Source of the DNA: an uncultured Pseudomonadales bacterium
GTDB taxonomy: Bacteria > Patescibacteriota > Microgenomatia > UBA1400 > PJMF01
Assembly (NCBI GenBank): GCA_964406075.1
Contig: CAYOQI010000001.1
Location: 133,015-197,014 of the forward strand
Direction of reading: 5' to 3'
Length of the DNA stretch: 64,000 nt
Shown here piece after piece: positions 1,364 through 53,512 of the stretch. The notes beneath the pieces are model-generated. The model saw only the letters and a list, made by a program, of their open reading frames with translations. It ran no database searches and was not told where the DNA came from. Position numbers and translations under genes: made by a program. Within the stretch, counting starts at the first letter, position 1, and every line of letters begins with the position of its first letter.

Positions 1364-3052
1364 TTATCTACGATAAATTACCCAAACTGTTTTCCCCGCT
1401 AAATCTTTCACCTCACTCACCTTTTCTCCACCAACTTCTTCATATTTTTGCAAAGTGCTAGCGAACAAGCCTGTTTCAAAACTTGATATAACATCAACAA
1501 AACGTATATTCTGAAATGCCAAATACTCACCTTGATCCTGAGCAACTAACTGGTCTTCTGCTTGAACTAACCGAGGATCAGCTTGTGTGTAGAACCAATA
1601 ATACATTGCGGGTCGACCATATTCTCTAGTGATAAATACTGGTTCACCGACGCGTTTGGTTTGATTGAGTTGCGTAATCATTTCTTCATAGCCATACTGC
1701 CACTCTGAAGAATACTGAACTGGGTACACTCTTAAGTAATGAAAAAGAAACAGAAAAGCTTCGAGCGTTACAAATATCATAAAAACTCCGACCAGCCAAC
1801 GAAACTTAGAAGGAAGATTGTAGTAACCAGCAGCTACCCCAATTCCAATTACGATAAAAAATAATGGTGATACAGCTAAAATACGTAAGGAATGTGGCAC
1901 AACAGTTGTTAATGATGCTGGCAAAATTGCAGCTATCGTCCAACCAATTAAAAGCAAGATAATTCGTTTTTTTCTTTGCTTAAATAAAATATAGATACCA
2001 TATATCAATGGGAAAAAACTCAGATGCAATAAATGGCCAAAGTACTGAGTTGAGTGTCTTGGATTCACATCACCATGTAGAAATAAAAATCCCAAATCAA
2101 AATGGCTGACGGCATTATTCATGATTTGCTGTAAGAACAACAAATATCGATGGTGAATAATTCGCGCTACGATTCCTCCTCCATCTTCTTGAATCCTCTG
2201 ATTACTTTCTTCAATTACTGAAATGTCAGAAAAAATACTCGTTTCATTGAATCGTTGAGACAATTCATTTGAGCCTAAAGCGAACAGAAAAGGTGAAAGT
2301 AAGATCAAACCGATGAATAATAAAATAAGAATTTGTTTCAAATTCTTTTTCCACTTTATTAAGTAAGGAAAAACAAAAAGCACACCGAGCAACGGAGCTG
2401 TTAACCTACTTCCATGATAGGCATACATCGAAAGACAGAAGAATACCGTTGCAAAGACGAATACTCGAAATGAGACTGAAGTAAATTGCAGTTTAAATTC
2501 ATTCCCTGTCGAAAGCCTCCAACTTTTAAAACCTAACCATACTCCTGTTAGAACTAAAACTGTTGCTAGATTTGACTCCCAGCCACCTCGAGAAAATATA
2601 ATACCCCATGGTGATACTGCTGCAAAAAACATGACAACGCATTGAAGAAGTAATAATTGTTTCTTTTTCCAATCTGGAAATAATTCTTCTGCGAAAGCGT
2701 GCGCTAATTTTCCACTGATCCACACAATGAGCGTACCAAATATGACTGAGGGTAAACGCACCGCTAAAACATTTAACCCAAATAGTGCTATGAACGGGAC
2801 AATTGAATAGAAATACAAACTCGGTTTAAAGTCACCAAACGACTCAAAGGCAATCAGCGGAAGAAAATTTCCATGATGATCTCTACCTGTTTGTAAAATT
2901 GAATATGCGTCATATCCTAGCGCTACTTCTTCCCAGTATGGCGAGGGTGGAACAGAAGTGATCCACACAAATCGAATCAAAAACGCTACAGCAATAATTA
3001 CTAAGGGGATAATTTTAGAATTACTTAATAACGTTGACTTTAAATTACTCAT
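1364..3052 (-). CDS. GT-C fold membrane glycosyltransferase (ArnT/PMT, GT39/83-like), paralog 2
   Basis: 562 aa and polytopic. First-loop motif PYWEEVALGYDAYSILQTGRDHHG, then AVRLPSVIFG. C-terminal soluble domain carries SSEWQYGYEEM and YGRPAMYYWFY. Confidence 0.85.
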   Translation of the reverse strand: MSNLKSTLLSNSKIIPLVIIAVAFLIRFVWITSVPPSPYWEEVALGYDAYSILQTGRDHHGNFLPLIAFESFGDFKPSLYFYSIVPFIALFGLNVLAVRLPSVIFGTLIVWISGKLAHAFAEELFPDWKKKQLLLLQCVVMFFAAVSPWGIIFSRGGWESNLATVLVLTGVWLGFKSWRLSTGNEFKLQFTSVSFRVFVFATVFFCLSMYAYHGSRLTAPLLGVLFVFPYLIKWKKNLKQILILLFIGLILLSPFLFALGSNELSQRFNETSIFSDISVIEESNQRIQEDGGGIVARIIHHRYLLFLQQIMNNAVSHFDLGFLFLHGDVNPRHSTQYFGHLLHLSFFPLIYGIYILFKQRKKRIILLLIGWTIAAILPASLTTVVPHSLRILAVSPLFFIVIGIGVAAGYYNLPSKFRWLVGVFMIFVTLEAFLFLFHYLRVYPVQYSSEWQYGYEEMITQLNQTKRVGEPVFITREYGRPAMYYWFYTQADPRLVQAEDQLVAQDQGEYLAFQNIRFVDVISSFETGLFASTLQKYEEVGGEKVSEVKDLAGKTVWVIYRR

Positions 3053-4731
3053 CTGTACTCCATGATTAAATATGAAGTGAGAGAATTTGGACGAGAAATT
3101 TCTTGTACTACTTTGTATCGGGGATTATCAAATTTATCTCCAGGTACTTCTTTTGGTTGAACTACTAATAAAACAGGTTCTTGAGCCTTTTCTATATCTG
3201 ACCATACAATTCTTCCAAAATGGGTTTTCCCCAATTGTTGGACATGTTCAAATCCTTCTTCAGTCGGTGGATAATGAATAAATTCCTCACCATCTTTAAT
3301 AATTCTATCGGGCGAAAAGAATAAAAAGTATACATACGGAGAGCTACTTTCTCCTTGCATCAGCACTTTGGGAAATGCCTCAGATCTATTGTAGACAGCC
3401 TGAACTAAATCGTCACTAAACCATGGCCATCGATCAGCATTCAATGCAGGAAACAGAATGAAGTATGCGACAAATAAATGGAAAATACTAAAAATGAAAA
3501 CAAGAATTAAAAAAGGCTGAACTTTTTTCAAGTACGATCCAATGAGCCCAATTCCATATGAACTCATGATTTCTAATCCAAGAATTGCTGGAAAAAACCG
3601 AATACTGTGATTCGGTTCAATCGTCAGCAACGGTGCTACAGATGCGAGCACAATCCAACCTAATATCCATCGTTGCCAGATTCTCTTTTTCTTTAGGAAA
3701 TAGAGCAAACTGATCGCTAATGTCAAAACTGCATACCAATGCATGTTTCCCACGCCAGGAATATTATGCGATCCATGGCTTCCTCCTCGTAAAAAGAGAA
3801 AGTCAGGATTCATCATTGAAAACATACCTCGAATAAATGTTTGGGATAACAACACCGGTCGACTACTGTAAAAAGGTTGCAAAAAACTCAAACCTTTTGG
3901 AGACAGGACTCCATTTACTTCAGCTTGTTGTGATTGAAGCCGTTCTTCGGAAAAAATTGAAATACCTGAGTACTTTGTTTGATTATTTTCTATTGCCTTG
4001 TCAACAAAAAGAAAAAGTATTGGGAGTAAGAAGACGATGACTGAAAATGCGGAAATCAGCCTGTATTTTCCAATGAACGACTTCACTTCAGTTCTGAGTA
4101 TCCAAGCCGTCCAAGCTATGATGAGAGGCGTAAATAGCTGAAATGCATGATACCCAATCATCGTCAGTCCGAAACACACTCCTGATAAAATCACGAGCCA
4201 AGGTTTTTTATTTACTGTTGAGGCGAGCCAAAAAGTGACACCTGCCATACAAAAAGCCATCGCAACGTTTGCTTCATATGCTATTCGTGACAAATGAACC
4301 GACCAAGGTGAGATTGCTAAAGAAAATGCCACGAGTAGTGGTAACCAATACGGCGCATCCCATTTTTTAACAAGTAATCGAGTGAGGAAATAACCAATGA
4401 TGGTAATTAAAACACCAGCCAGAGCAGATAAGATTCTAATCGAAAAAGGATTTAGGCCGAAAACTGAAATAAATGGAATACTTAAATAGACATATAAGGG
4501 TAATTTCCAGTCACCAAAAGACTTGATGTTTACTGGCCACTTTTGTCCATATTCATCCGCTCCAGTTTGGAGCAGTGAGTAGGCTGTATACCCGAGCGAT
4601 GCTTCATCTCTATTTATTCCATCAGGTATCTCTCCAAGTTTCCAAAAACGCAAAAAGATAGCGATCACAATAATTCCTACAAAAAAAAGAGTTTGATACG
4701 AACGCAATACTTTATTCAATGAAATATTCAT
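3049..4731 (-). CDS. GT-C fold membrane glycosyltransferase (ArnT/PMT-like), paralog 3
   Basis: 560 aa and polytopic. Motifs INRDEASLGYTAYSLLQTGADEYG and IRILSALAG. 4-nt overlap with the downstream gene. Confidence 0.85.
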   Translation of the reverse strand: MNISLNKVLRSYQTLFFVGIIVIAIFLRFWKLGEIPDGINRDEASLGYTAYSLLQTGADEYGQKWPVNIKSFGDWKLPLYVYLSIPFISVFGLNPFSIRILSALAGVLITIIGYFLTRLLVKKWDAPYWLPLLVAFSLAISPWSVHLSRIAYEANVAMAFCMAGVTFWLASTVNKKPWLVILSGVCFGLTMIGYHAFQLFTPLIIAWTAWILRTEVKSFIGKYRLISAFSVIVFLLPILFLFVDKAIENNQTKYSGISIFSEERLQSQQAEVNGVLSPKGLSFLQPFYSSRPVLLSQTFIRGMFSMMNPDFLFLRGGSHGSHNIPGVGNMHWYAVLTLAISLLYFLKKKRIWQRWILGWIVLASVAPLLTIEPNHSIRFFPAILGLEIMSSYGIGLIGSYLKKVQPFLILVFIFSIFHLFVAYFILFPALNADRWPWFSDDLVQAVYNRSEAFPKVLMQGESSSPYVYFLFFSPDRIIKDGEEFIHYPPTEEGFEHVQQLGKTHFGRIVWSDIEKAQEPVLLVVQPKEVPGDKFDNPRYKVVQEISRPNSLTSYLIMEYR

Positions 4732-4738
4732 ACAGAAG

Positions 4739-6454
4739 TTATTCAGTAGTTTTCTTTAACACAAATCTGACTGATCCATCAGGGGCGAGAATTAAGGAAT
4801 CTCCCAAAGCTGGATCAATTTGATCTGGATCAGCAACAATAATTGTATTTTTTCTCAGCAAATCACCTGAGTTTATTTTATCAGTAAACTCATACTTAAT
4901 TAATGAGCCTCCTTGATACCAAATTGGATTCGTTTGTCGAAAGAAAAGTGCATAGATGTATGGCTGGCCGTACTTGCTAGTAAAAAGAATTTTCTCAACT
5001 GAATCTTCTTGAGGGATAACATATTTAAAAGCCTCTTCATAACCATACTGAAAAGAATCAGCGGATGTCACGGCATACACTGTTCTATAGTCTTTCCAAT
5101 AACTCAAAAACACAAACACATGAATCAAAAAGAGCGTACCAACAAATGATTTAAGAATCAGCAGTTTATCGGTATCCTTAATATTCTGGCGTCCAACCCA
5201 TGAAGAAAAAACAATATTTTTAAGAATCAAACTCCAGATATGGAGAATGAAAAATATTCCAAGCGAAGAGAGAATAATAAAACCTGGATATGAGAGTAAT
5301 GCTCGATTTGAATGAGGTATCTCCAAACCAATCGCAGCCGGAACCAAGCCACTCACAATCCAACCAAGTCCAAATAAAAAGACCCGAACGACTTCTTTTA
5401 TCTGTTTGCTGTGAATTGATTTTCGACATAAATAAAGTAATCCCAAGCCCATGGCAATAATCAAAATCCACTCTGAAACAAACAGGACTCCCCATTTTCC
5501 ATCCCCGTGTCTCAATGTGGTTGTTTGACCAAGTAAAAGAAATTTAATTGATGAATGGGCAAGTAAGTTTTCAGCAATGACAAACGGCAGTAAAACTGGC
5601 GGGTATTCTGAAAACAGCGAGGTTTGATTAAAACGCTCTGCACCTTTTGCATAGATCATGTCTTGAATCAATGGAAAACTGACGAGAACAAATGAAGCAC
5701 ATAAAATGACGAAAGCGATGATTCTCTTCCTCAGTCGTACTCTACTGGTTAAAAACATCACGCCATAGAGCAAAGGCACAGCTATTTTCGCACTGTGATA
5801 GGTATACGCGGCAAATGATCCACTCATTCCAGCAAGAATCAACAATCCAATTGAAAATATCGGCTTTTCTCGAATTTCTTTTCGTTGCGAAACAAACCAG
5901 GCGTACACAGAAAATACAGTAAATGCTAAAGCCATGCCTGATTCAAATCCAGCTCGAGAAAAATGAATATGCCAAGGTGAAGTAGCAATCATTACGCCTG
6001 CCATCAAAGCAATAACTTCGGCGATTGTAAACTTCTTGATTTCAGGAATCTCAATTCTGTGAGGAATTTTTCGGAATACTTCATATACCACGAGCATGAC
6101 AACCATGACTGTAAAAATTCCAGCCAACGCAAAAGGTAATCTCACCACCCACACATGCATCCCTAATACAGCTGTGAAAACTCCATTTATGTATATCGCT
6201 AGAGGTGCTTTAAAATCTCCAAACGATTTAAAAGATACAGGTAATCGAATCAACCACTCATCCCTGCGAGTTTCCCAAATCGCTGACCCATTGTACCCAA
6301 TCGCAGCTTCATCCCATGAGAATCCTGCTGGGATTTCACCTAATTTATATAATCGGAATAAAGCAGCGAAAACGATAACGAGAACGAACAAAAGGTAAAA
6401 GGTTTGTTTTTGCCAAAAAATTGTACGCCAGTGAGAGAAGTAATCTCGCATCAA
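4739..6454 (-). CDS. GT-C fold membrane glycosyltransferase (ArnT/PMT-like), paralog 4
   Basis: 571 aa and polytopic. Motifs FSWDEAAIGYNGSAIWETRRDEW and VVRLPFALAG. C-terminal ADSFQYGYEEAF and YGQPYIYALFF match paralog 2. Confidence 0.85.
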   Translation of the reverse strand: MMRDYFSHWRTIFWQKQTFYLLFVLVIVFAALFRLYKLGEIPAGFSWDEAAIGYNGSAIWETRRDEWLIRLPVSFKSFGDFKAPLAIYINGVFTAVLGMHVWVVRLPFALAGIFTVMVVMLVVYEVFRKIPHRIEIPEIKKFTIAEVIALMAGVMIATSPWHIHFSRAGFESGMALAFTVFSVYAWFVSQRKEIREKPIFSIGLLILAGMSGSFAAYTYHSAKIAVPLLYGVMFLTSRVRLRKRIIAFVILCASFVLVSFPLIQDMIYAKGAERFNQTSLFSEYPPVLLPFVIAENLLAHSSIKFLLLGQTTTLRHGDGKWGVLFVSEWILIIAMGLGLLYLCRKSIHSKQIKEVVRVFLFGLGWIVSGLVPAAIGLEIPHSNRALLSYPGFIILSSLGIFFILHIWSLILKNIVFSSWVGRQNIKDTDKLLILKSFVGTLFLIHVFVFLSYWKDYRTVYAVTSADSFQYGYEEAFKYVIPQEDSVEKILFTSKYGQPYIYALFFRQTNPIWYQGGSLIKYEFTDKINSGDLLRKNTIIVADPDQIDPALGDSLILAPDGSVRFVLKKTTE

Positions 6455-13714: not shown

Positions 13715-15453
13715 GAGGGTTTTTTTAATTTTTCTTTTCTTAATTCAACGATCATATACAGTGTCACAATAGCAGACAGGAGTGCAATCAAATCGGACCA
13801 CATCCGAACTGGTGTTGATCTCAATTGTAATCCGACAAGATGATCTCCTGGCGGAACTTTTACTTCAATTGTTCCCACTGCCATCCTCTCGTGTGGCACA
13901 TCTTTTCCATCGAGTGAGACTGTCCATCCCGGATAATCTGCTACGTTAAATCGTAACACTCGTTCACCTGAAAAAATCATTCTGACTAATATTTCATGTG
14001 TTCGATCGACCAATACTTCACGTTGTCGACGTTCCTCTTCTAAACCTACAACTTCAACACGTAACTCAGCAGGTTGTATATTCTCGGCTAAATATATCGG
14101 CATGTAATCAGGTAATGTTTCACTCATCTCGTTCTGAATTCTGGTTGCATCCGAGTAATACAGAGCTTCCGAATTATCCAGAAAAAATTCTGGTTGAAAA
14201 TAGGTCACACCTTTGAAAAATGTATATCCTATGATCAAAACTGCCAGAGAATATCGATACATGTCTTTTTTAATTATCCAAAAACTTATGCCCGAAGCAC
14301 ATGCAATAAAGAATGATGACAACGCTAAAAATCTCCACGGGAATTGAGCAACTTGAAGTGTGGGAATATTCCAAATTAACTGAGATTTTTGAGTGCTTAA
14401 TAACAATGAAGCCAGTAAAGAAAAAGCTAAAAACCCAAAAAGGACAAGTTTATTTAAAACAACTTTTTTCTTCGATTGAATGAAATAAATAAAAATGACA
14501 ACAAGTGAGAGTGCGAACAAAACCAACTGAGGGTAGCCTAAAAAGAAACTAATATCGTCGTTTGGTCCCCACTGTGAACCACCATACTTCCAGTTTTCTT
14601 GAAAAAACTGTCGAATATATAAAAAATGTTGAGAGTAATGAAAGTAACCACTCAGTATTCTTGAACTCACTTGAGTGTAATCTTTTTCCAAAAGTGCCGG
14701 AAAAATATAAAAAGCGGAAGTACCAATACTTAAAACAAAAGCCCGCACAATATCTTTTAGTACTCTAACTTTTTTGCCCTTCGTTCTCACAAAAGCAAGG
14801 CCAGCATACGCAAGCACAACCGGAGTGAAAAACAACGTCATTAAATTGTGACTCAAAAACAAACCGACATTTGCTAAAAATAGTGTTATCCATGGTTTCT
14901 TTTGGTTTTGTGCTGTAATTTTGTCTACACCATAGAGTATCCACGGGAAAAAGCTCATAGCCCACACTTCAGACAATGCACCACGTACATAAAGATTTAC
15001 TGCTCGATATGGTGCGAGAGTAAAAAGGACGGCAGCAACTAATCCAGCTAATCGGCCATAGTGACGAGAAACATATTTGTAAGTTCCGATGAAACCAACA
15101 ACTGATGGAATCAACCATAGAAACTTGGAAGCAAAAAGCAAATTGTTTGTGAGCCAATAAAAAAATGCTCCGACATAAAAAGGTAACGGAGCATAGAACT
15201 CGAATAACGGCATGCCGTAGCCGTATCCTAAATTTTGACTCCAACGAACCGGAAAATGACCATCTCGTAACGCGTCCAACATCTCAGAAATACGCACTCC
15301 ATGAACAAAATCATGGGTTCTGAATATTTCAGGATTGAGTAAGGCCCGCGAGGAAATAAAAATCGTGATACAAAAAATAATAAGCACACCAAATTTTTGT
15401 ACCCGTGGGTTTTTTAATAATATCAACCAGTGATCAATTTGATTTTTTTTCAT
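13711..15453 (-). CDS. YfhO/PTPS-related-like polytopic membrane protein (probable GT-C glycosyltransferase)
   Basis: 580 aa. N-terminal HDFVHGVRISEM...FPVRWSQNLGYGYGMPLFEFYAPLPFY. C-terminal beta-domain ADYPGWTVSLDGKDVP...VKVPPGDHLVGLQL followed by a final TM, as in YfhO-type proteins. Confidence 0.6.
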   Translation of the reverse strand: MKKNQIDHWLILLKNPRVQKFGVLIIFCITIFISSRALLNPEIFRTHDFVHGVRISEMLDALRDGHFPVRWSQNLGYGYGMPLFEFYAPLPFYVGAFFYWLTNNLLFASKFLWLIPSVVGFIGTYKYVSRHYGRLAGLVAAVLFTLAPYRAVNLYVRGALSEVWAMSFFPWILYGVDKITAQNQKKPWITLFLANVGLFLSHNLMTLFFTPVVLAYAGLAFVRTKGKKVRVLKDIVRAFVLSIGTSAFYIFPALLEKDYTQVSSRILSGYFHYSQHFLYIRQFFQENWKYGGSQWGPNDDISFFLGYPQLVLFALSLVVIFIYFIQSKKKVVLNKLVLFGFLAFSLLASLLLSTQKSQLIWNIPTLQVAQFPWRFLALSSFFIACASGISFWIIKKDMYRYSLAVLIIGYTFFKGVTYFQPEFFLDNSEALYYSDATRIQNEMSETLPDYMPIYLAENIQPAELRVEVVGLEEERRQREVLVDRTHEILVRMIFSGERVLRFNVADYPGWTVSLDGKDVPHERMAVGTIEVKVPPGDHLVGLQLRSTPVRMWSDLIALLSAIVTLYMIVELRKEKLKKPS

Positions 15454-22247: not shown

Positions 22248-22354
22248 TGTCATCCTGAATTCGACTGACGATAGGAAGATCGAGTGAAGGATCTGTTAAC
22301 AGCAAAACTAAATTTAACCTCTTCACAGATTCCTCGGAGTACCTCGGAATGACA
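22248..22354. repeat. Palindromic repeat copy A (TGTCATCCTGA...CCTCGGAATGACA)
   Basis: 107 bp. The outer arms TGTCATCCTGA and CCTCGGAATGACA are an imperfect inverted pair. The inner arms GGATCTGT/ACAGATTC pair with one mismatch. About 80% alignable to copy B. Confidence 0.8.
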
Positions 22355-22360
22355 ATTCAA

Positions 22361-22651
22361 TTAACTATTCCATTCGACATATAAATCTTTCAACCTTGGA
22401 TTCTCCTCCTTAATTAGCTCTAACTTTTTGTTTCTATTCCAACCTTTTAACTCCTTTTCTCTTTCGATTGCTTGATTAATTGATGAATATTCTTCAATAT
22501 AGACAAGTTTACTAATGTTGTACTTGGCAGTAAAACTATTTGGATAAATTTTCTCTTTGTGCTCCCAAATTCTCCCTTCTAAATCGCCTGTCACTCCAAT
22601 GTAAGTTTTATTTGAAATACTCATCATGATGTAAATGAAATATTTTTTCAC
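22361..22651 (-). CDS. GIY-YIG nuclease family protein (small, YhbQ/COG2827-like)
   Basis: 96 aa with a GTG start. YFIYIMMSISNKTYIGVTGDLEGRIWEHK...REKELKGWNRNKK. Confidence 0.85.
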   Translation of the reverse strand: MKKYFIYIMMSISNKTYIGVTGDLEGRIWEHKEKIYPNSFTAKYNISKLVYIEEYSSINQAIEREKELKGWNRNKKLELIKEENPRLKDLYVEWNS

Positions 22652-22675: not shown

Positions 22676-22766
22676 TGTCATCCTGAGGAGGTACGACGAA
22701 GAATCTGTTAACAGTAAAACTGATTTTTGCCTTAATACAGATTCCTCAGATTACCTCGGAATGGCA
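22676..22766. repeat. Palindromic repeat copy B
   Basis: 91 bp, in the same orientation as copy A: TGTCATCCTGAGG...GAAGAATCTGTTAACAGTAAAACT...ACAGATTCCTCAGATTACCTCGGAATGGCA. Confidence 0.8.
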
Positions 22767-34786: not shown

Positions 34787-34803
34787 ATAAAAAAGTATTT
34801 CTT

Positions 34804-34871
34804 CCGCCAAAGGCGGATCAGCCTCTGGCTGAGAATAGCATCAGGTTGACCTGCCTGCCGGCAGGCAGGTC
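34804..34871. repeat. Cluster of three GC-rich palindromes, including a perfect 24-bp one
   Basis: CCGCCaaaGGCGG (34804-16), CAGCCtctGGCTG (34819-31) and GACCTGCCTGCCGGCAGGCAGGTC (34848-71). A related copy lies at 54616-54654. Confidence 0.7.
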
Positions 34872-34934
34872 TCCAGTAGGTTTGAATCGAGATTGAAGGT
34901 TAAATGGCACAGTTGATTATTGTAACACTTTTCT

Positions 34935-35384
34935 TGTCATCCTGAGCGATCAGGTAATCCTGACAGTCGAAGGATCCCTGTCACGGGAGAGTATTAAGAT
35001 TCCAAGTTATACTTAAATCTTGCCACTGTGGGTTTAGGCTATTAATGAGTTTCTCTTTCTTTTTCCTTGACCATCCTTTGAGTTGCTTTTCTCGGTTTAT
35101 TGCATCCATAATTTGATTGAAGTCTTCGGCATACACTAAAGTATGACACTGGTACTTTTTGGTAAATCCTTCAATCAAATCCTGTTTATGTTCGTAAACT
35201 CTTCGTTCTAAATCATTCGTTACTCCTATATAGAGAGTTCCTGAAACACTACTCATGAAATATACATGGTACTGATGTGATGACACTTACGTATTATCAA
35301 TCAAGAAAAGTAACTCCTTCAATAACCAATGATGCTGACAGCGATTCCTCGAATGTCTGGAATACCAGACGCCTCGGAATGACA
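34935..35384 (-). mobile_element. GIY-YIG gene nested between the two arms of the TGTCATCC...GGAATGACA palindromic element (copy C)
   Basis: Left arm TGTCATCCTGAGCGA..GTCGAAGGATCCCTGTCA (34935-34983). Right arm ACAGCGATTCCTCGAA..CGCCTCGGAATGACA (35338-35384). The ORF occupies the position of the loop in copies A and B. Mobility is an inference. Confidence 0.5.
34981..35286 (-). CDS. GIY-YIG nuclease family protein (paralog of 22361-22651)
   Basis: 101 aa. YHVYFMSSVSGTLYIGVTNDLERRVYEHK...REKQLKGWSRKKK. Confidence 0.85.
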   Translation of the reverse strand: MSSHQYHVYFMSSVSGTLYIGVTNDLERRVYEHKQDLIEGFTKKYQCHTLVYAEDFNQIMDAINREKQLKGWSRKKKEKLINSLNPQWQDLSITWNLNTLP

Positions 35385-35399
35385 AAAGAATAAGATATA

Positions 35400-47661: not shown

Positions 47662-48867
47662 ATGAGTTCTTATACACCTTCTCCCGAAATTTTAGAAAAA
47701 TATGCCCAAGTTTTAGTCAACTATGCACTGAACTCTGGTGAAGGCGTCAAACCTGAAGAAGTCGTTATGTGCGGTGTACCCGACGTCGCCCTACCACTTG
47801 GCTTACACCTTCAAAACGTGATTTTGAAAGCCGGTGCATATCCAATCATTCACATCATCCCAAGTGGTTTTGATAAAGACTTTTATCGATTTGCAAATGA
47901 GAAACAACTGACTTTTTTTCCTGAAGATTATTTGAAAGCACGCGCAGAGTTAATCGATCACCAAATAAGCATTATCGCTGATGTTGATCCATCTGAACTA
48001 AGTGAGGTCGATCCTCAGAAGATTATGACCGCACGTAATTCGAAAAAAACCTATCGCGACTGGCTGAATGAGAAAGAAACTCACGGAAAATACACCTGGA
48101 CGGCCGCGTTGTGGGGAGTCGAAGCAAAAGCCGAAGAAGTGGGCTTATCAATGGATGAGTACTGGGATCAAATTATCAAAGCTTGTTTCCTTGATACTGA
48201 AGACCCTATTAAGCACTGGCGCGAGCTCGGAAAAATGCAAATCGATATTTTAAAAAATTTAAATAAAATGGAAATTGAGTACTTAGAAGTCAAAGGTCCA
48301 GATGTAGATTTGACTATCAAACTTGGGGCCGATCGAATTTGGCAAGGAGGGAGTGGTCGCAACATCCCGAGCTTTGAATTTTTTACTTCACCTGATTGGC
48401 GAGGAACAAATGGATGGATTACCTTTAACCAACCACTCTATCGCTATGGCTCAATCGTCAAAAATGTTCGACTCGAATTCAAAGATGGTCTCATTGTAAA
48501 AGCCTCAGCCGAACAAGGTGACAAGCTGGTCCAAGAAATGCTGAAAACCAAAAATGCCAATAAAATTGGGGAGTATTCCTTGACTGATAAACGTATGTCC
48601 CGTATCACTCATGTCATGGCTGAAACGTTATTTGACGAAAATATCGGTGGCCCATTTGGAAACACTCATTTAGCAATCGGAAAGTCCTACAAGGATTGTT
48701 ATCGGGGAGACGCACGGAAACTTACGCCTGAAGATTGGGAAGCTATAGGGTTCAATGATTCAGCTGAACACACCGATATTATTTCCACCACTGATCGTAC
48801 TGTCACTGCCACTTTGGTCGATGGAACTAAAAAAGTGATTTATAAAGATGGAATGTTTGTGATTTAA
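47662..48867 (+). CDS. Aminopeptidase, M29 (AmpS/PepS) family
   Basis: 401 aa. N-terminal LEKYAQVLVNYALNSGEGVKPEE, and C-terminal FDENIGGPFGNTHLAIGKSY...HTDII. Confidence 0.75.
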   Translation: MSSYTPSPEILEKYAQVLVNYALNSGEGVKPEEVVMCGVPDVALPLGLHLQNVILKAGAYPIIHIIPSGFDKDFYRFANEKQLTFFPEDYLKARAELIDHQISIIADVDPSELSEVDPQKIMTARNSKKTYRDWLNEKETHGKYTWTAALWGVEAKAEEVGLSMDEYWDQIIKACFLDTEDPIKHWRELGKMQIDILKNLNKMEIEYLEVKGPDVDLTIKLGADRIWQGGSGRNIPSFEFFTSPDWRGTNGWITFNQPLYRYGSIVKNVRLEFKDGLIVKASAEQGDKLVQEMLKTKNANKIGEYSLTDKRMSRITHVMAETLFDENIGGPFGNTHLAIGKSYKDCYRGDARKLTPEDWEAIGFNDSAEHTDIISTTDRTVTATLVDGTKKVIYKDGMFVI

Positions 48868-53122: not shown

Positions 53123-53512
53123 ATGCACTGGACAATGTGGATCATATTTCCTGCTTGGATTCTCGAGTCGTCACGTGGCATTGCGAATGCAAAAAATATT
53201 ATCTGGTTGCAAACAATTCTGAACCAGAAAGTATTTACTCATTTAGGTAATGTCGATAATGCGTGGTTTATCACGATCATCCCACTAATAGTGATCTCTA
53301 CGCTACATTTACGCAATCGCAAAATTGTGCGAATATTGATCATATTGGGTATCATCCTGAGTATTTACGCAGTTCTCGATGAAGAATTGCTCATCTTACC
53401 CCTCCTAAATCAGGGTACTCCTGATCTTTTGGACATTCCTGGTGGAGTGGTAGGTTGGATATGCGGAGTTTTGAACTGTCGGTACTGGTTACGGCGAAAG
53501 CATTTGTTATAG
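53123..53512 (+). CDS. Small membrane protein (possibly VanZ-like)
   Basis: 129 aa with 3-4 TM segments. LDEELLILPLLNQGTPDLLDIPGGVVGWICG loosely resembles the VanZ DE...D...G...G block. Confidence 0.5.
   Translation: MHWTMWIIFPAWILESSRGIANAKNIIWLQTILNQKVFTHLGNVDNAWFITIIPLIVISTLHLRNRKIVRILIILGIILSIYAVLDEELLILPLLNQGTPDLLDIPGGVVGWICGVLNCRYWLRRKHLL

Follow-up and report, generated by a model that had tools for sequence, protein, structure and literature searches.

The closest described relative of the element studied here is the Ssn/SRM system. SsnA of Neisseria meningitidis is a 94-aa single-domain GIY-YIG protein (CDD cd10448, GIY-YIG_unchar_3; Chenal et al. 2025, Nat Commun 16:2388, PMC11893778) that binds the 28-nt NTS hairpin repeat CGTCATTCCCGCGMAVGCGGGAATCYRG as single-stranded DNA only and on one strand only, and binds neither double-stranded DNA nor RNA. 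Its cleavage site lies a few nucleotides upstream of the hairpin, and it has no activity on double-stranded DNA; cleavage depends most on the three bases upstream of the palindrome and binding on the C directly after it, and Y6, Y17 and E64 are the SsnA residues that were mutated (PMC11893778). Ssn homologs occur in many phyla, with at least one related motif (SRM) nearby in 71% and motifs on both sides in 42%; SRMs are described as inverted repeats of 20-50 nt, and the degenerate pattern given for them is a search tool, not a definition. In Neisseria the system reduces transformation by NTS-bearing DNA, and the authors liken the NTS-ssnA-NTS architecture to an insertion sequence (IS) and compare it with REP/RAYT, i.e. 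repetitive extragenic palindromes and the REP-associated tyrosine transposases (PMC11893778). Here we analyse a 64-kb stretch of DNA from a Patescibacteria genome (the whole stretch is called the window) that carries two genes for small GIY-YIG proteins, ssn-like genes 1 and 2. Gene 2 lies between uvrB and aspS and is flanked by two inverted arms; gene and arms together, which we call unit C (34935-35384), very probably form an SRM-ssn-SRM cassette i.e. an Ssn-family GIY-YIG gene between two inverted copies of its cognate hairpin site.

We reached the work of Chenal et al. 2025 (PMC11893778) by searching a hairpin sequence, GTCATTCCCGC, from loci related to the window. The hairpin-gene-hairpin arrangement is already explained by the system published in 2025, and the arrangement alone is no discovery. 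What is new is (i) the extension of the Ssn/SRM system to a genome of the Patescibacteria (candidate phyla radiation, CPR) with two paralogs, (ii) a large class of cognate hairpins, with tandem G·A and an apical insert, that escapes the published SRM pattern and (iii) comparative evidence, from empty sites and cassette-limited similarity, on the authors' open question of whether the cassette is or was a mobile element. The window shares with the published system a single-domain GIY-YIG protein of ~95 aa with the same Tyr/Tyr/Glu, the hairpin-gene-hairpin architecture, flanking inverted hairpins with a GTC head, an AT-closed stem and a C tail, and extra copies clustered near the gene. It differs in its arms, which are 29-48 nt long with a pyrimidine triplet, tandem G·A and a variable apical mini-hairpin (the NTS has the stem ATTCCCGCG and a 3-nt loop), in its Patescibacteria host, and in having two paralogs within 13 kb and six hairpins in the whole 64 kb, with no expansion to hundreds. 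The orientation differs as well: the heads of the gene 2 arms face away from the gene, whereas at gene 1 and at the gonococcal locus the nearest heads face toward it.

REP/REPIN sequences with their RAYT (TnpA-REP) partners, as in REPtrons and bacterial interspersed mosaic elements (BIMEs), are likewise short imperfect palindromes with a conserved, unpaired 5' head (GTAG there, TGTC here), arranged as inverted doublets flanking the gene of a nuclease that recognises them as single-stranded hairpins. The likeness is one of analogy only, the enzyme there being a Y1 HUH transposase homolog (PF01797), unrelated to GIY-YIG, with GTAG/CGTC heads and that of the window a GIY-YIG protein with a TGTC head. 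REPs usually number hundreds per genome. In the dRS3/NIME arrays of Neisseria (NIME, neisserial intergenic mosaic element), spacers are bounded by inverted 20-nt hairpin repeats in tandem; the two doublets of hairpins beside gene 1 (doublets A and B, described below) and a 118-nt array in locus L028 resemble these, whereas sequence, host and copy number differ. The dRS3 repeat itself is described in PMC11893778. Finally, REP-loop insertions of the IS1397/ISKpn1 type and the I-TevI and Seg proteins recall the window in having an ORF between palindromic halves or a GIY-YIG core. The window differs from them in that it has neither a DDE transposase nor a DNA-binding domain, each of its arms is a complete hairpin, and no double-stranded-DNA activity would be expected of its proteins.

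Anatomy of unit C

A repeat finder reported an inverted repeat at 34929-34983 and 35336-35390 (55-nt arms, 75% complementary, 352 nt between them), the core arms of which read TGTCAT...CTGTCA at 34935-34983 (TGTCATCCTGAGCGATCAGGTAATCCTGACAGTCGAAGGATCCCTGTCA) and TGACAG...ATGACA at 35336-35384 (TGACAGCGATTCCTCGAATGTCTGGAATACCAGACGCCTCGGAATGACA). The left arm, 3' of gene 2, is an SRM-type hairpin on the plus strand, 5'-TGTCAT-CCT-GA-GCG...GTC-GA-AGG-ATC-3', with the apical mini-hairpin TCAGGtaatCCTGA; the right arm, 5' of gene 2, is an SRM-type hairpin on the minus strand, 5'-TGTCAT-TCC-GA-GGCG...TTC-GA-GGA-ATC-3', with the apical mini-hairpin GTCTGGtattCCAGAC. Gene 2 (34981-35286, minus strand, GTG start) encodes a protein of 101 aa that is by homology a single-domain GIY-YIG nuclease. 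Its start codon is separated from the 5' arm by a 49-nt leader (35287-35335, minus strand), and its TGA stop (TCA at 34981-34983) falls within the left arm. The neighbours, uvrB on the left and aspS on the right, both lie on the minus strand. An earlier note on this DNA had described a GIY-YIG ORF between two inverted arms, with its stop codon inside the left arm and a small hairpin in each arm, and had assigned the arms to one repeat family with further copies in the window. These points are borne out by the repeat finder and the Pfam match (PF01541), by the position of the TGA, by the mini-hairpins found in the unit C arms (TCAGGtaatCCTGA and GTCTGGaataCCAGAC) and by the arm order and polarity that unit C shares with doublets A and B.

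Pairing within the arms

The same note had taken the two arms to be halves of a single palindrome with the ORF in place of the loop. We compared arms from 80 loci encoding relatives of the window proteins, drawn from one-genome-per-species collections and spanning Acidobacteriota, Patescibacteria, Clostridia, Bacteroidota, Proteobacteria, Cyanobacteriota, Bifidobacterium, Omnitrophota, Verrucomicrobiota, Chloroflexota and others. Alignment of the arms yields the rule TGTC-AT-YYY-GA-S...S'-GA-RRR-AT-C; between the two halves stands a variable apical hairpin that is often GC-rich. For 116 unique arms from more than 12 phyla, covariation was tested with the 3' half picked without regard to complementarity. 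YYY and RRR were fully complementary in 106 of them, against a permutation mean of 23 and maximum of 41, and none of 10,000 permutations reached 106. Seven triplet pairs are in use (CCT/AGG, CCC/GGG, TCT/AGA, TCC/GGA, TTC/GAA, CTT/AAG and CTC/GAG), and the next stem position (S/S') is Watson-Crick in 98 of the 106 arms, with four pair types.

In unit C, as read from the sequence, the arm of the CCT/AGG type is on the left and that of the TCC/GGA type on the right, and each pairs perfectly with itself; a left-right duplex would contain a C·A mismatch and a G·T pair within the block that is most conserved. One long left-right palindrome is ruled out by the covariation within arms and by the differing arm types in each unit of this genome. 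By these comparisons unit C is two inverted hairpins with an ORF between them, not one palindrome with the ORF as its loop, and the earlier picture of two palindrome halves has to be given up. A generic perfect-stem hairpin finder is too strict for such arms, as it misses the G·A pairs and a bulged T.

The window proteins and SsnA

Gene 2 has a single domain, GIY-YIG (Pfam PF01541, E 5e-14); PF01541 covers the whole protein in both gene 1 (96 aa) and gene 2 (101 aa), and gene 1 also has a weak overlapping T5orf172 match. A tblastn search with the window protein against the chromosome of N. gonorrhoeae, taken from a plasmid collection, gave a single match (E 8e-17). The matched ORF is taken to be the gonococcal SsnA ortholog on account of its length (94 aa), its residues Y6, Y17 and E64, and the canonical NTS repeats around it. 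Identity to this ortholog is 49% for gene 2 (E 2e-26) and 45% for gene 1 (E 2e-24), in both cases over essentially the full length, so that both genes lie within the homology threshold of PMC11893778 (E < 1e-10), judged here against the gonococcal protein. Y9, Y19 and E66 of gene 2, and Y7, Y18 and E65 of gene 1, align with the catalytic residues Y6, Y17 and E64 of SsnA. The sites also carry the characteristic head and tail, as five of the six window arms read TGTCAT...ATC and the other has its head mutated to TGCCAT. On sequence grounds we file the window proteins in the Ssn family, with a distinct class of site. The closest solved structures are the uncharacterised UPF0213 GIY-YIG proteins 1ZG2 and 1YWL, and the only NCBIfam match was a weak, sub-threshold one to a group I intron endonuclease family (TIGR01453).

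A variant class of hairpin and its association with ssn genes

Our independently derived rule (TGTC head, AT-closed stem, C tail) agrees with the determinants reported in PMC11893778, and loci with proteins 55-60% identical to the window protein carry hairpins identical to the published NTS core, GTCATTCCCGCG-N3-GCGGGAATC. The window arms, to judge from their composition, are a variant hairpin class, which combines a pyrimidine triplet and tandem G·A with an apical insert. Hairpins of this kind are common at the loci of the window proteins' closest relatives and were seen in Acidobacteriota, Patescibacteria, Clostridia, Cyanobacteriota and others. As it escapes the SRM pattern, the published association figures (71%, 42%) are probably underestimates. 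The variant hairpins are also candidate new specificities for single-stranded-DNA tools.

The motif GTCATYYYGA was found within 260 nt upstream of the ssn gene in 46 of the 80 loci, and its reverse complement within 260 nt downstream in 47. Among the loci without a flanking arm under this strict pattern, 18 were inspected, and most of these bear variant TGTCAT hairpins with the same head and tail, e.g. TGTCATTCCCGCGAAAGCGGGAATC. A background of 376 kb of Patescibacteria DNA contained no ssn genes and five arms; this set was chosen via the unrelated HIT gene that neighbours gene 1, which yields distant relatives only, none of which keeps the HIT-helicase adjacency. Chance can be excluded because homologous genes in distant phyla are flanked by arms in this layout too. 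The heads-outward layout of unit C (arm, gene, inverted arm) is the commonest, being assigned to 25 of the 80 loci by a classifier that missed a few such loci whose ORF reads through the downstream arm. The layout of gene 1, between two complete doublets with heads toward the gene, is rarer and was seen in L027, L028 and L078 and also at the gonococcal locus. Tandem arrays of doublets occur in L028 (Ruminococcaceae, period ~118 nt) and L062 (Dialister, period ~362 nt), and in L010 (Acidobacteriaceae) the whole cassette is tandemly duplicated relative to L017; these arrangements recall the NIME arrays of Neisseria.

Gene 1 and its doublets

The terminal 12-mer TGTCATYCYGAG occurs seven times in the window, where 1.2 occurrences are expected and none of 100 shuffles reached seven, and six of the seven matches are arms of doublets A (22248-22354) and B (22676-22766) and of unit C. 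Doublet A consists of a plus-strand arm (22248-22293, CCT/AGG), a spacer of ~34 nt and a minus-strand arm (22328-22354, TCC/GGA); it holds no ORF, and 6 nt separate its end from the stop codon of gene 1. Gene 1 (22361-22651, minus strand), whose 96-aa GIY-YIG protein is 49% identical to that of gene 2, lies between doublets A and B. Doublet B has a plus-strand arm (22676-22705, CCT/AGA, with one C·A mismatch) and, beyond a ~34-nt spacer, a minus-strand arm (22740-22766), which is the arm with the mutated TGCCAT head. The earlier note had proposed checking whether other GIY-YIG paralogs of the genome are also embedded in a loop; the paralog in the window, gene 1, sits between two complete doublets.

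In arm order and polarity doublets A and B match unit C, with about 30-35 nt replacing the ORF segment of ~350 nt. The earlier note had proposed aligning unit C with A and B to map the junction of ORF and loop. The alignment extends over the arms only; the spacers of A and B, which are ~70% alike as judged by eye, show no clear homology to the interior of C. Such an alignment fits deletion derivatives and independent pairs of sites alike, and we cannot tell the two apart from it. The ORF-less doublets within the window adjoin gene 1 only and are not dispersed.

In the earlier note A, B and a "copy D" had been read as MITE-like derivatives (MITE, miniature inverted-repeat transposable element). 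For A and B, which are ORF-less and have the arm layout of C, this origin is possible but unproven, with no target-site duplication at their flanks. Copy D (53350) is a chance match rather than a fourth ORF-less copy: it is a 12-mer with one mismatch, which gives it a TATCAT head, it lies inside an ORF (53123-53512), and its candidate stem also contains a mismatch. Two other regular-expression matches, at 48363 and 57489, were likewise rejected as chance. Units A, B and C each combine one CCT/AGG-type plus-strand arm with one TCC/GGA-type minus-strand arm; this mixture may serve to block a long perfect palindrome, or one paralog may serve each type.

Empty sites and shared cassettes

The relative L008 retains the gene order of the whole region, with 67-77% nucleotide identity in long alignments. 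Its uvrB-aspS gap has no arms and holds an unrelated 248-aa ORF (2651-3397) instead of an ssn cassette. The closest gene 2 homolog (77% identity) is found in the same relative between the CCA-adding enzyme gene and secF, in a cassette with the same arms as unit C and with the stop codon again within an arm; the window has no ssn element at this site. In L089, aspS and uvrB are 72 nt apart with no hairpin in the gap, and in L091 the gap contains a 269-aa ORF (4978-5787). At the gene 1 site, HIT and helicase are 109 nt apart in L178, with a terminator-like stem only, and L176 has an unrelated 92-aa ORF (1593-1871). Among the stretches examined of these five relatives, an ssn homolog was found in L008 only. 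The earlier note had proposed looking in relatives for empty sites with an intact hairpin at the uvrB-aspS position; the gap of L089 is free of hairpins. The arms accompany ssn genes rather than uvrB or aspS, which speaks against the refuting case named in the note, that they exist only as part of conserved regulatory regions of those two genes. These relatives are about 69-83% identical to the window at the protein level, and their intergenic DNA is not alignable with it. In the relatives, the gaps that hold ssn cassettes in the window contain the ORFs of 248, 269 and 92 aa, with no Pfam match recorded, and look like hot spots for variable cargo.

Seven genome pairs among the 80 loci share a cassette at 71-80% nucleotide identity. 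No similarity was detected across the 1.4 kb of flank on their sides, even by tblastx; the flanks of the truly orthologous pair L013/L072, by contrast, are similar. In the pairs L015/L019 and L068/L071 the aligned block (1413-1877 and 1446-1863) ends ~1-4 nt from the TGTCAT heads on both sides. Similarity limited to the cassette in otherwise unrelated contexts supports a discrete, transferable unit. No target-site duplication was found at the flanks of A, B, C or L001 (a locus with a gene 2 homolog), and recombination between dispersed hairpins and nick-triggered repair are equally open as routes of cassette movement.

Proposed mechanism and alternatives

Our reading of unit C as an SRM-ssn-SRM cassette brings together its anatomy, the pairing within arms, the homology to SsnA, the association across phyla and the cassette-limited similarity, all of which are observed in this analysis, while the restriction of cleavage to single-stranded DNA and the site of the cut would carry over from the published work. 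Each arm would extrude as a hairpin once the DNA becomes single-stranded, and only the strand reading 5'-TGTC-AT[stem]...[stem']AT-C-3' would be a substrate. By homology with SsnA, the protein is expected to bind the hairpin and to nick the single strand within a few nucleotides of the TGTC head, on its 5' side, with the C after the stem required for binding and the three bases before it required for cutting. As both heads of unit C face outward, each strand would be cut only once, at its 5' boundary, which puts one predicted cut just beyond either end of the cassette. Doublets A and B would be additional pairs of the same sites around the paralogous gene 1. As to the role in the cell, we can only speculate: the system might spread selfishly, or, as in Neisseria transformation, it might restrict or modulate the recombination of single-stranded DNA that is incoming or being replicated.

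Several results weigh against this reading. The published SRM pattern, HGTCWYN(0-2)YYVSBRHN(0-5)WNVSBRGN(0-2)RNCYNB, has no match in the window and matches in only 6 of the 80 related loci; its loop is limited to 0-5 nt and its stem composition differs. Recognition of these variant arms by the window proteins is something that we infer by homology. In single-strand folding energy, isolated arms surpass shuffled sequences only modestly (z from +0.4 to -2.2), which carries little weight because nearest-neighbour models give tandem G·A pairs no credit. Single stem mismatches are three T·G and four C·A, i.e. without strand bias and too few for a call between DNA and RNA. At the empty sites loss cannot be distinguished from gain, and neither the exact empty/filled junctions nor a target sequence can be defined, because the closest relatives are only ~70-83% identical.

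We consider it rather unlikely that the 450-bp unit moves autonomously as a DNA transposon, in which the GIY-YIG protein would be the transposase, the arms would be terminal inverted repeats (TIRs) and A and B would be internally deleted, non-autonomous copies. The arms are indeed TIR-like and face outward, A and B share the arm order of C, the cassette occupies different sites in syntenic relatives that also show empty sites, similarity in the seven genome pairs is bounded by the heads amid unrelated flanks, and an IS-like architecture was remarked on by the authors of PMC11893778. However, the target-site duplications of a transposon are missing at A, B, C and L001, the ORF-less doublets of the window stay beside gene 1, and the tandem arrays (L028, L010) resemble the outcome of unequal recombination between repeats. 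The window Ssn proteins have no transposase domain and the unit does not qualify as an IS or a MITE; moreover, the predicted cuts, one per strand, would leave a 5' phosphate on the element ends, which fits neither DDE nor HUH chemistry, and we know of no strand-transfer or ligation activity in GIY-YIG enzymes. The cassette-limited similarity nevertheless allows mobility by a route other than that of an IS or MITE. The arm-ssn-arm cassette could, for instance, be an autonomous mobile element of a new mechanistic class, in which nicks outside the TGTCAT heads would promote copying or transfer and the doublets would be non-autonomous derivatives; we rate this idea as rather unlikely. Under it the two paralogs may each serve one arm type (CCT/AGG and TCC/GGA).

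Two further explanations seem much less probable. GIY-YIG is the classic homing-endonuclease fold, and the earlier note had raised the idea of an ORF homing into a hairpin loop; in such a case the nuclease would cut empty, pre-existing hairpin doublets and repair would copy the ORF into them. The weak TIGR01453 match and the presence of ORF-less doublets A and B in the same genome agree with this, and the 5' arm of unit C shares its type (TCC/GGA) with arms of A and B while that of the closest ORF homolog, in L001, differs, which suggests arm exchange. Yet the orthologous sites in L089 (72 nt) and L178 offer no hairpin as a target, the protein has no DNA-binding domain beyond its 95-aa core, the context is a chromosomal intergenic region rather than an intron, intein or phage, and phages almost lack the family (11 weak matches in 50,697 records). 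Characterised homologs show no activity on double-stranded DNA, and in single-stranded DNA their cut lies upstream of the hairpin rather than between hairpins (PMC11893778). Taken with the hairpin-free aspS-uvrB sites, this makes homing into the loop very improbable. That the arms act in RNA, as mRNA stabilisers, terminators or a regulatory RNA that serves the uvrB/aspS region or the GIY-YIG transcript, is hardly credible even though the hairpins flank a transcription unit and the 3' arm begins at the stop codon. No relevant Rfam family was found in the window, in the region or in 20 related loci, the arms are not followed by a T-run, there is no excess of G·U-type intermediates among them, and relatives lack arms at the uvrB-aspS locus; because the arms are inverted, one transcript would, as read from the sequence, have the G·A motif at one end only. 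In addition, SsnA does not bind the RNA version of its site (PMC11893778).

Gene calls and neighbouring sequences

Gene 2 has an alternative internal ATG at 35256, which gives the 91-aa form used in public annotation. The GTG at 35286, 10 codons upstream and replaced by ATG in the L001 homolog, is the likelier start, because a start at the internal ATG drops the first beta-strand with the GIY tyrosine region. Public calls P0001 and P0002 begin window gene 2 and the L001 homolog at the internal ATG (91 aa), and a 133-aa public call (P0078) runs through the upstream hairpin, yielding '...CVIPNVTKWSEES...'. SRM hairpins therefore produce spurious N- and C-terminal extensions in annotations.

Solitary SRM-type hairpins stand ahead of the aspS start codon in L089 (3482-3506) and L090 (about 1741-1769). 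Their stems differ (TGTCATTCCCGCGAAAGCGGGAATC in L089, TGTCATCCTGTTTTAGTTTCAGGATC in L090), and the leader before them has a terminator-like stem, possibly a T-box. No ssn gene was found in the L089 and L090 stretches examined, and the window has no hairpin at the corresponding aspS position. In the Melioribacteraceae locus L092 a Y1_Tnp gene (IS200/RAYT-like, 14588-15034) lies 4 kb from the ssn cassette, which is probably a coincidence.

Two copies of the first 14 codons of uvrB lie at 34787-34915 (minus strand), 20-150 nt to the left of the unit C left arm. The first of them, VPFNLQSRFKPTGD, with its GTG at 34915, aligns with the start used in L008 and L089. It is followed by a GC-rich insert of ~85 nt with three hairpins, including a perfect 24-nt palindrome (GACCTGCCTGCC/GGCAGGCAGGTC, 34848-34871), after which the second start, MSFKLVSRFQPTGDQP..., continues as UvrB. 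Both hairpin modules are unique within the window. From its sequence, the insert seems to be a small hairpin-rich element within the 5' end of uvrB that supplies a replacement N-terminus.

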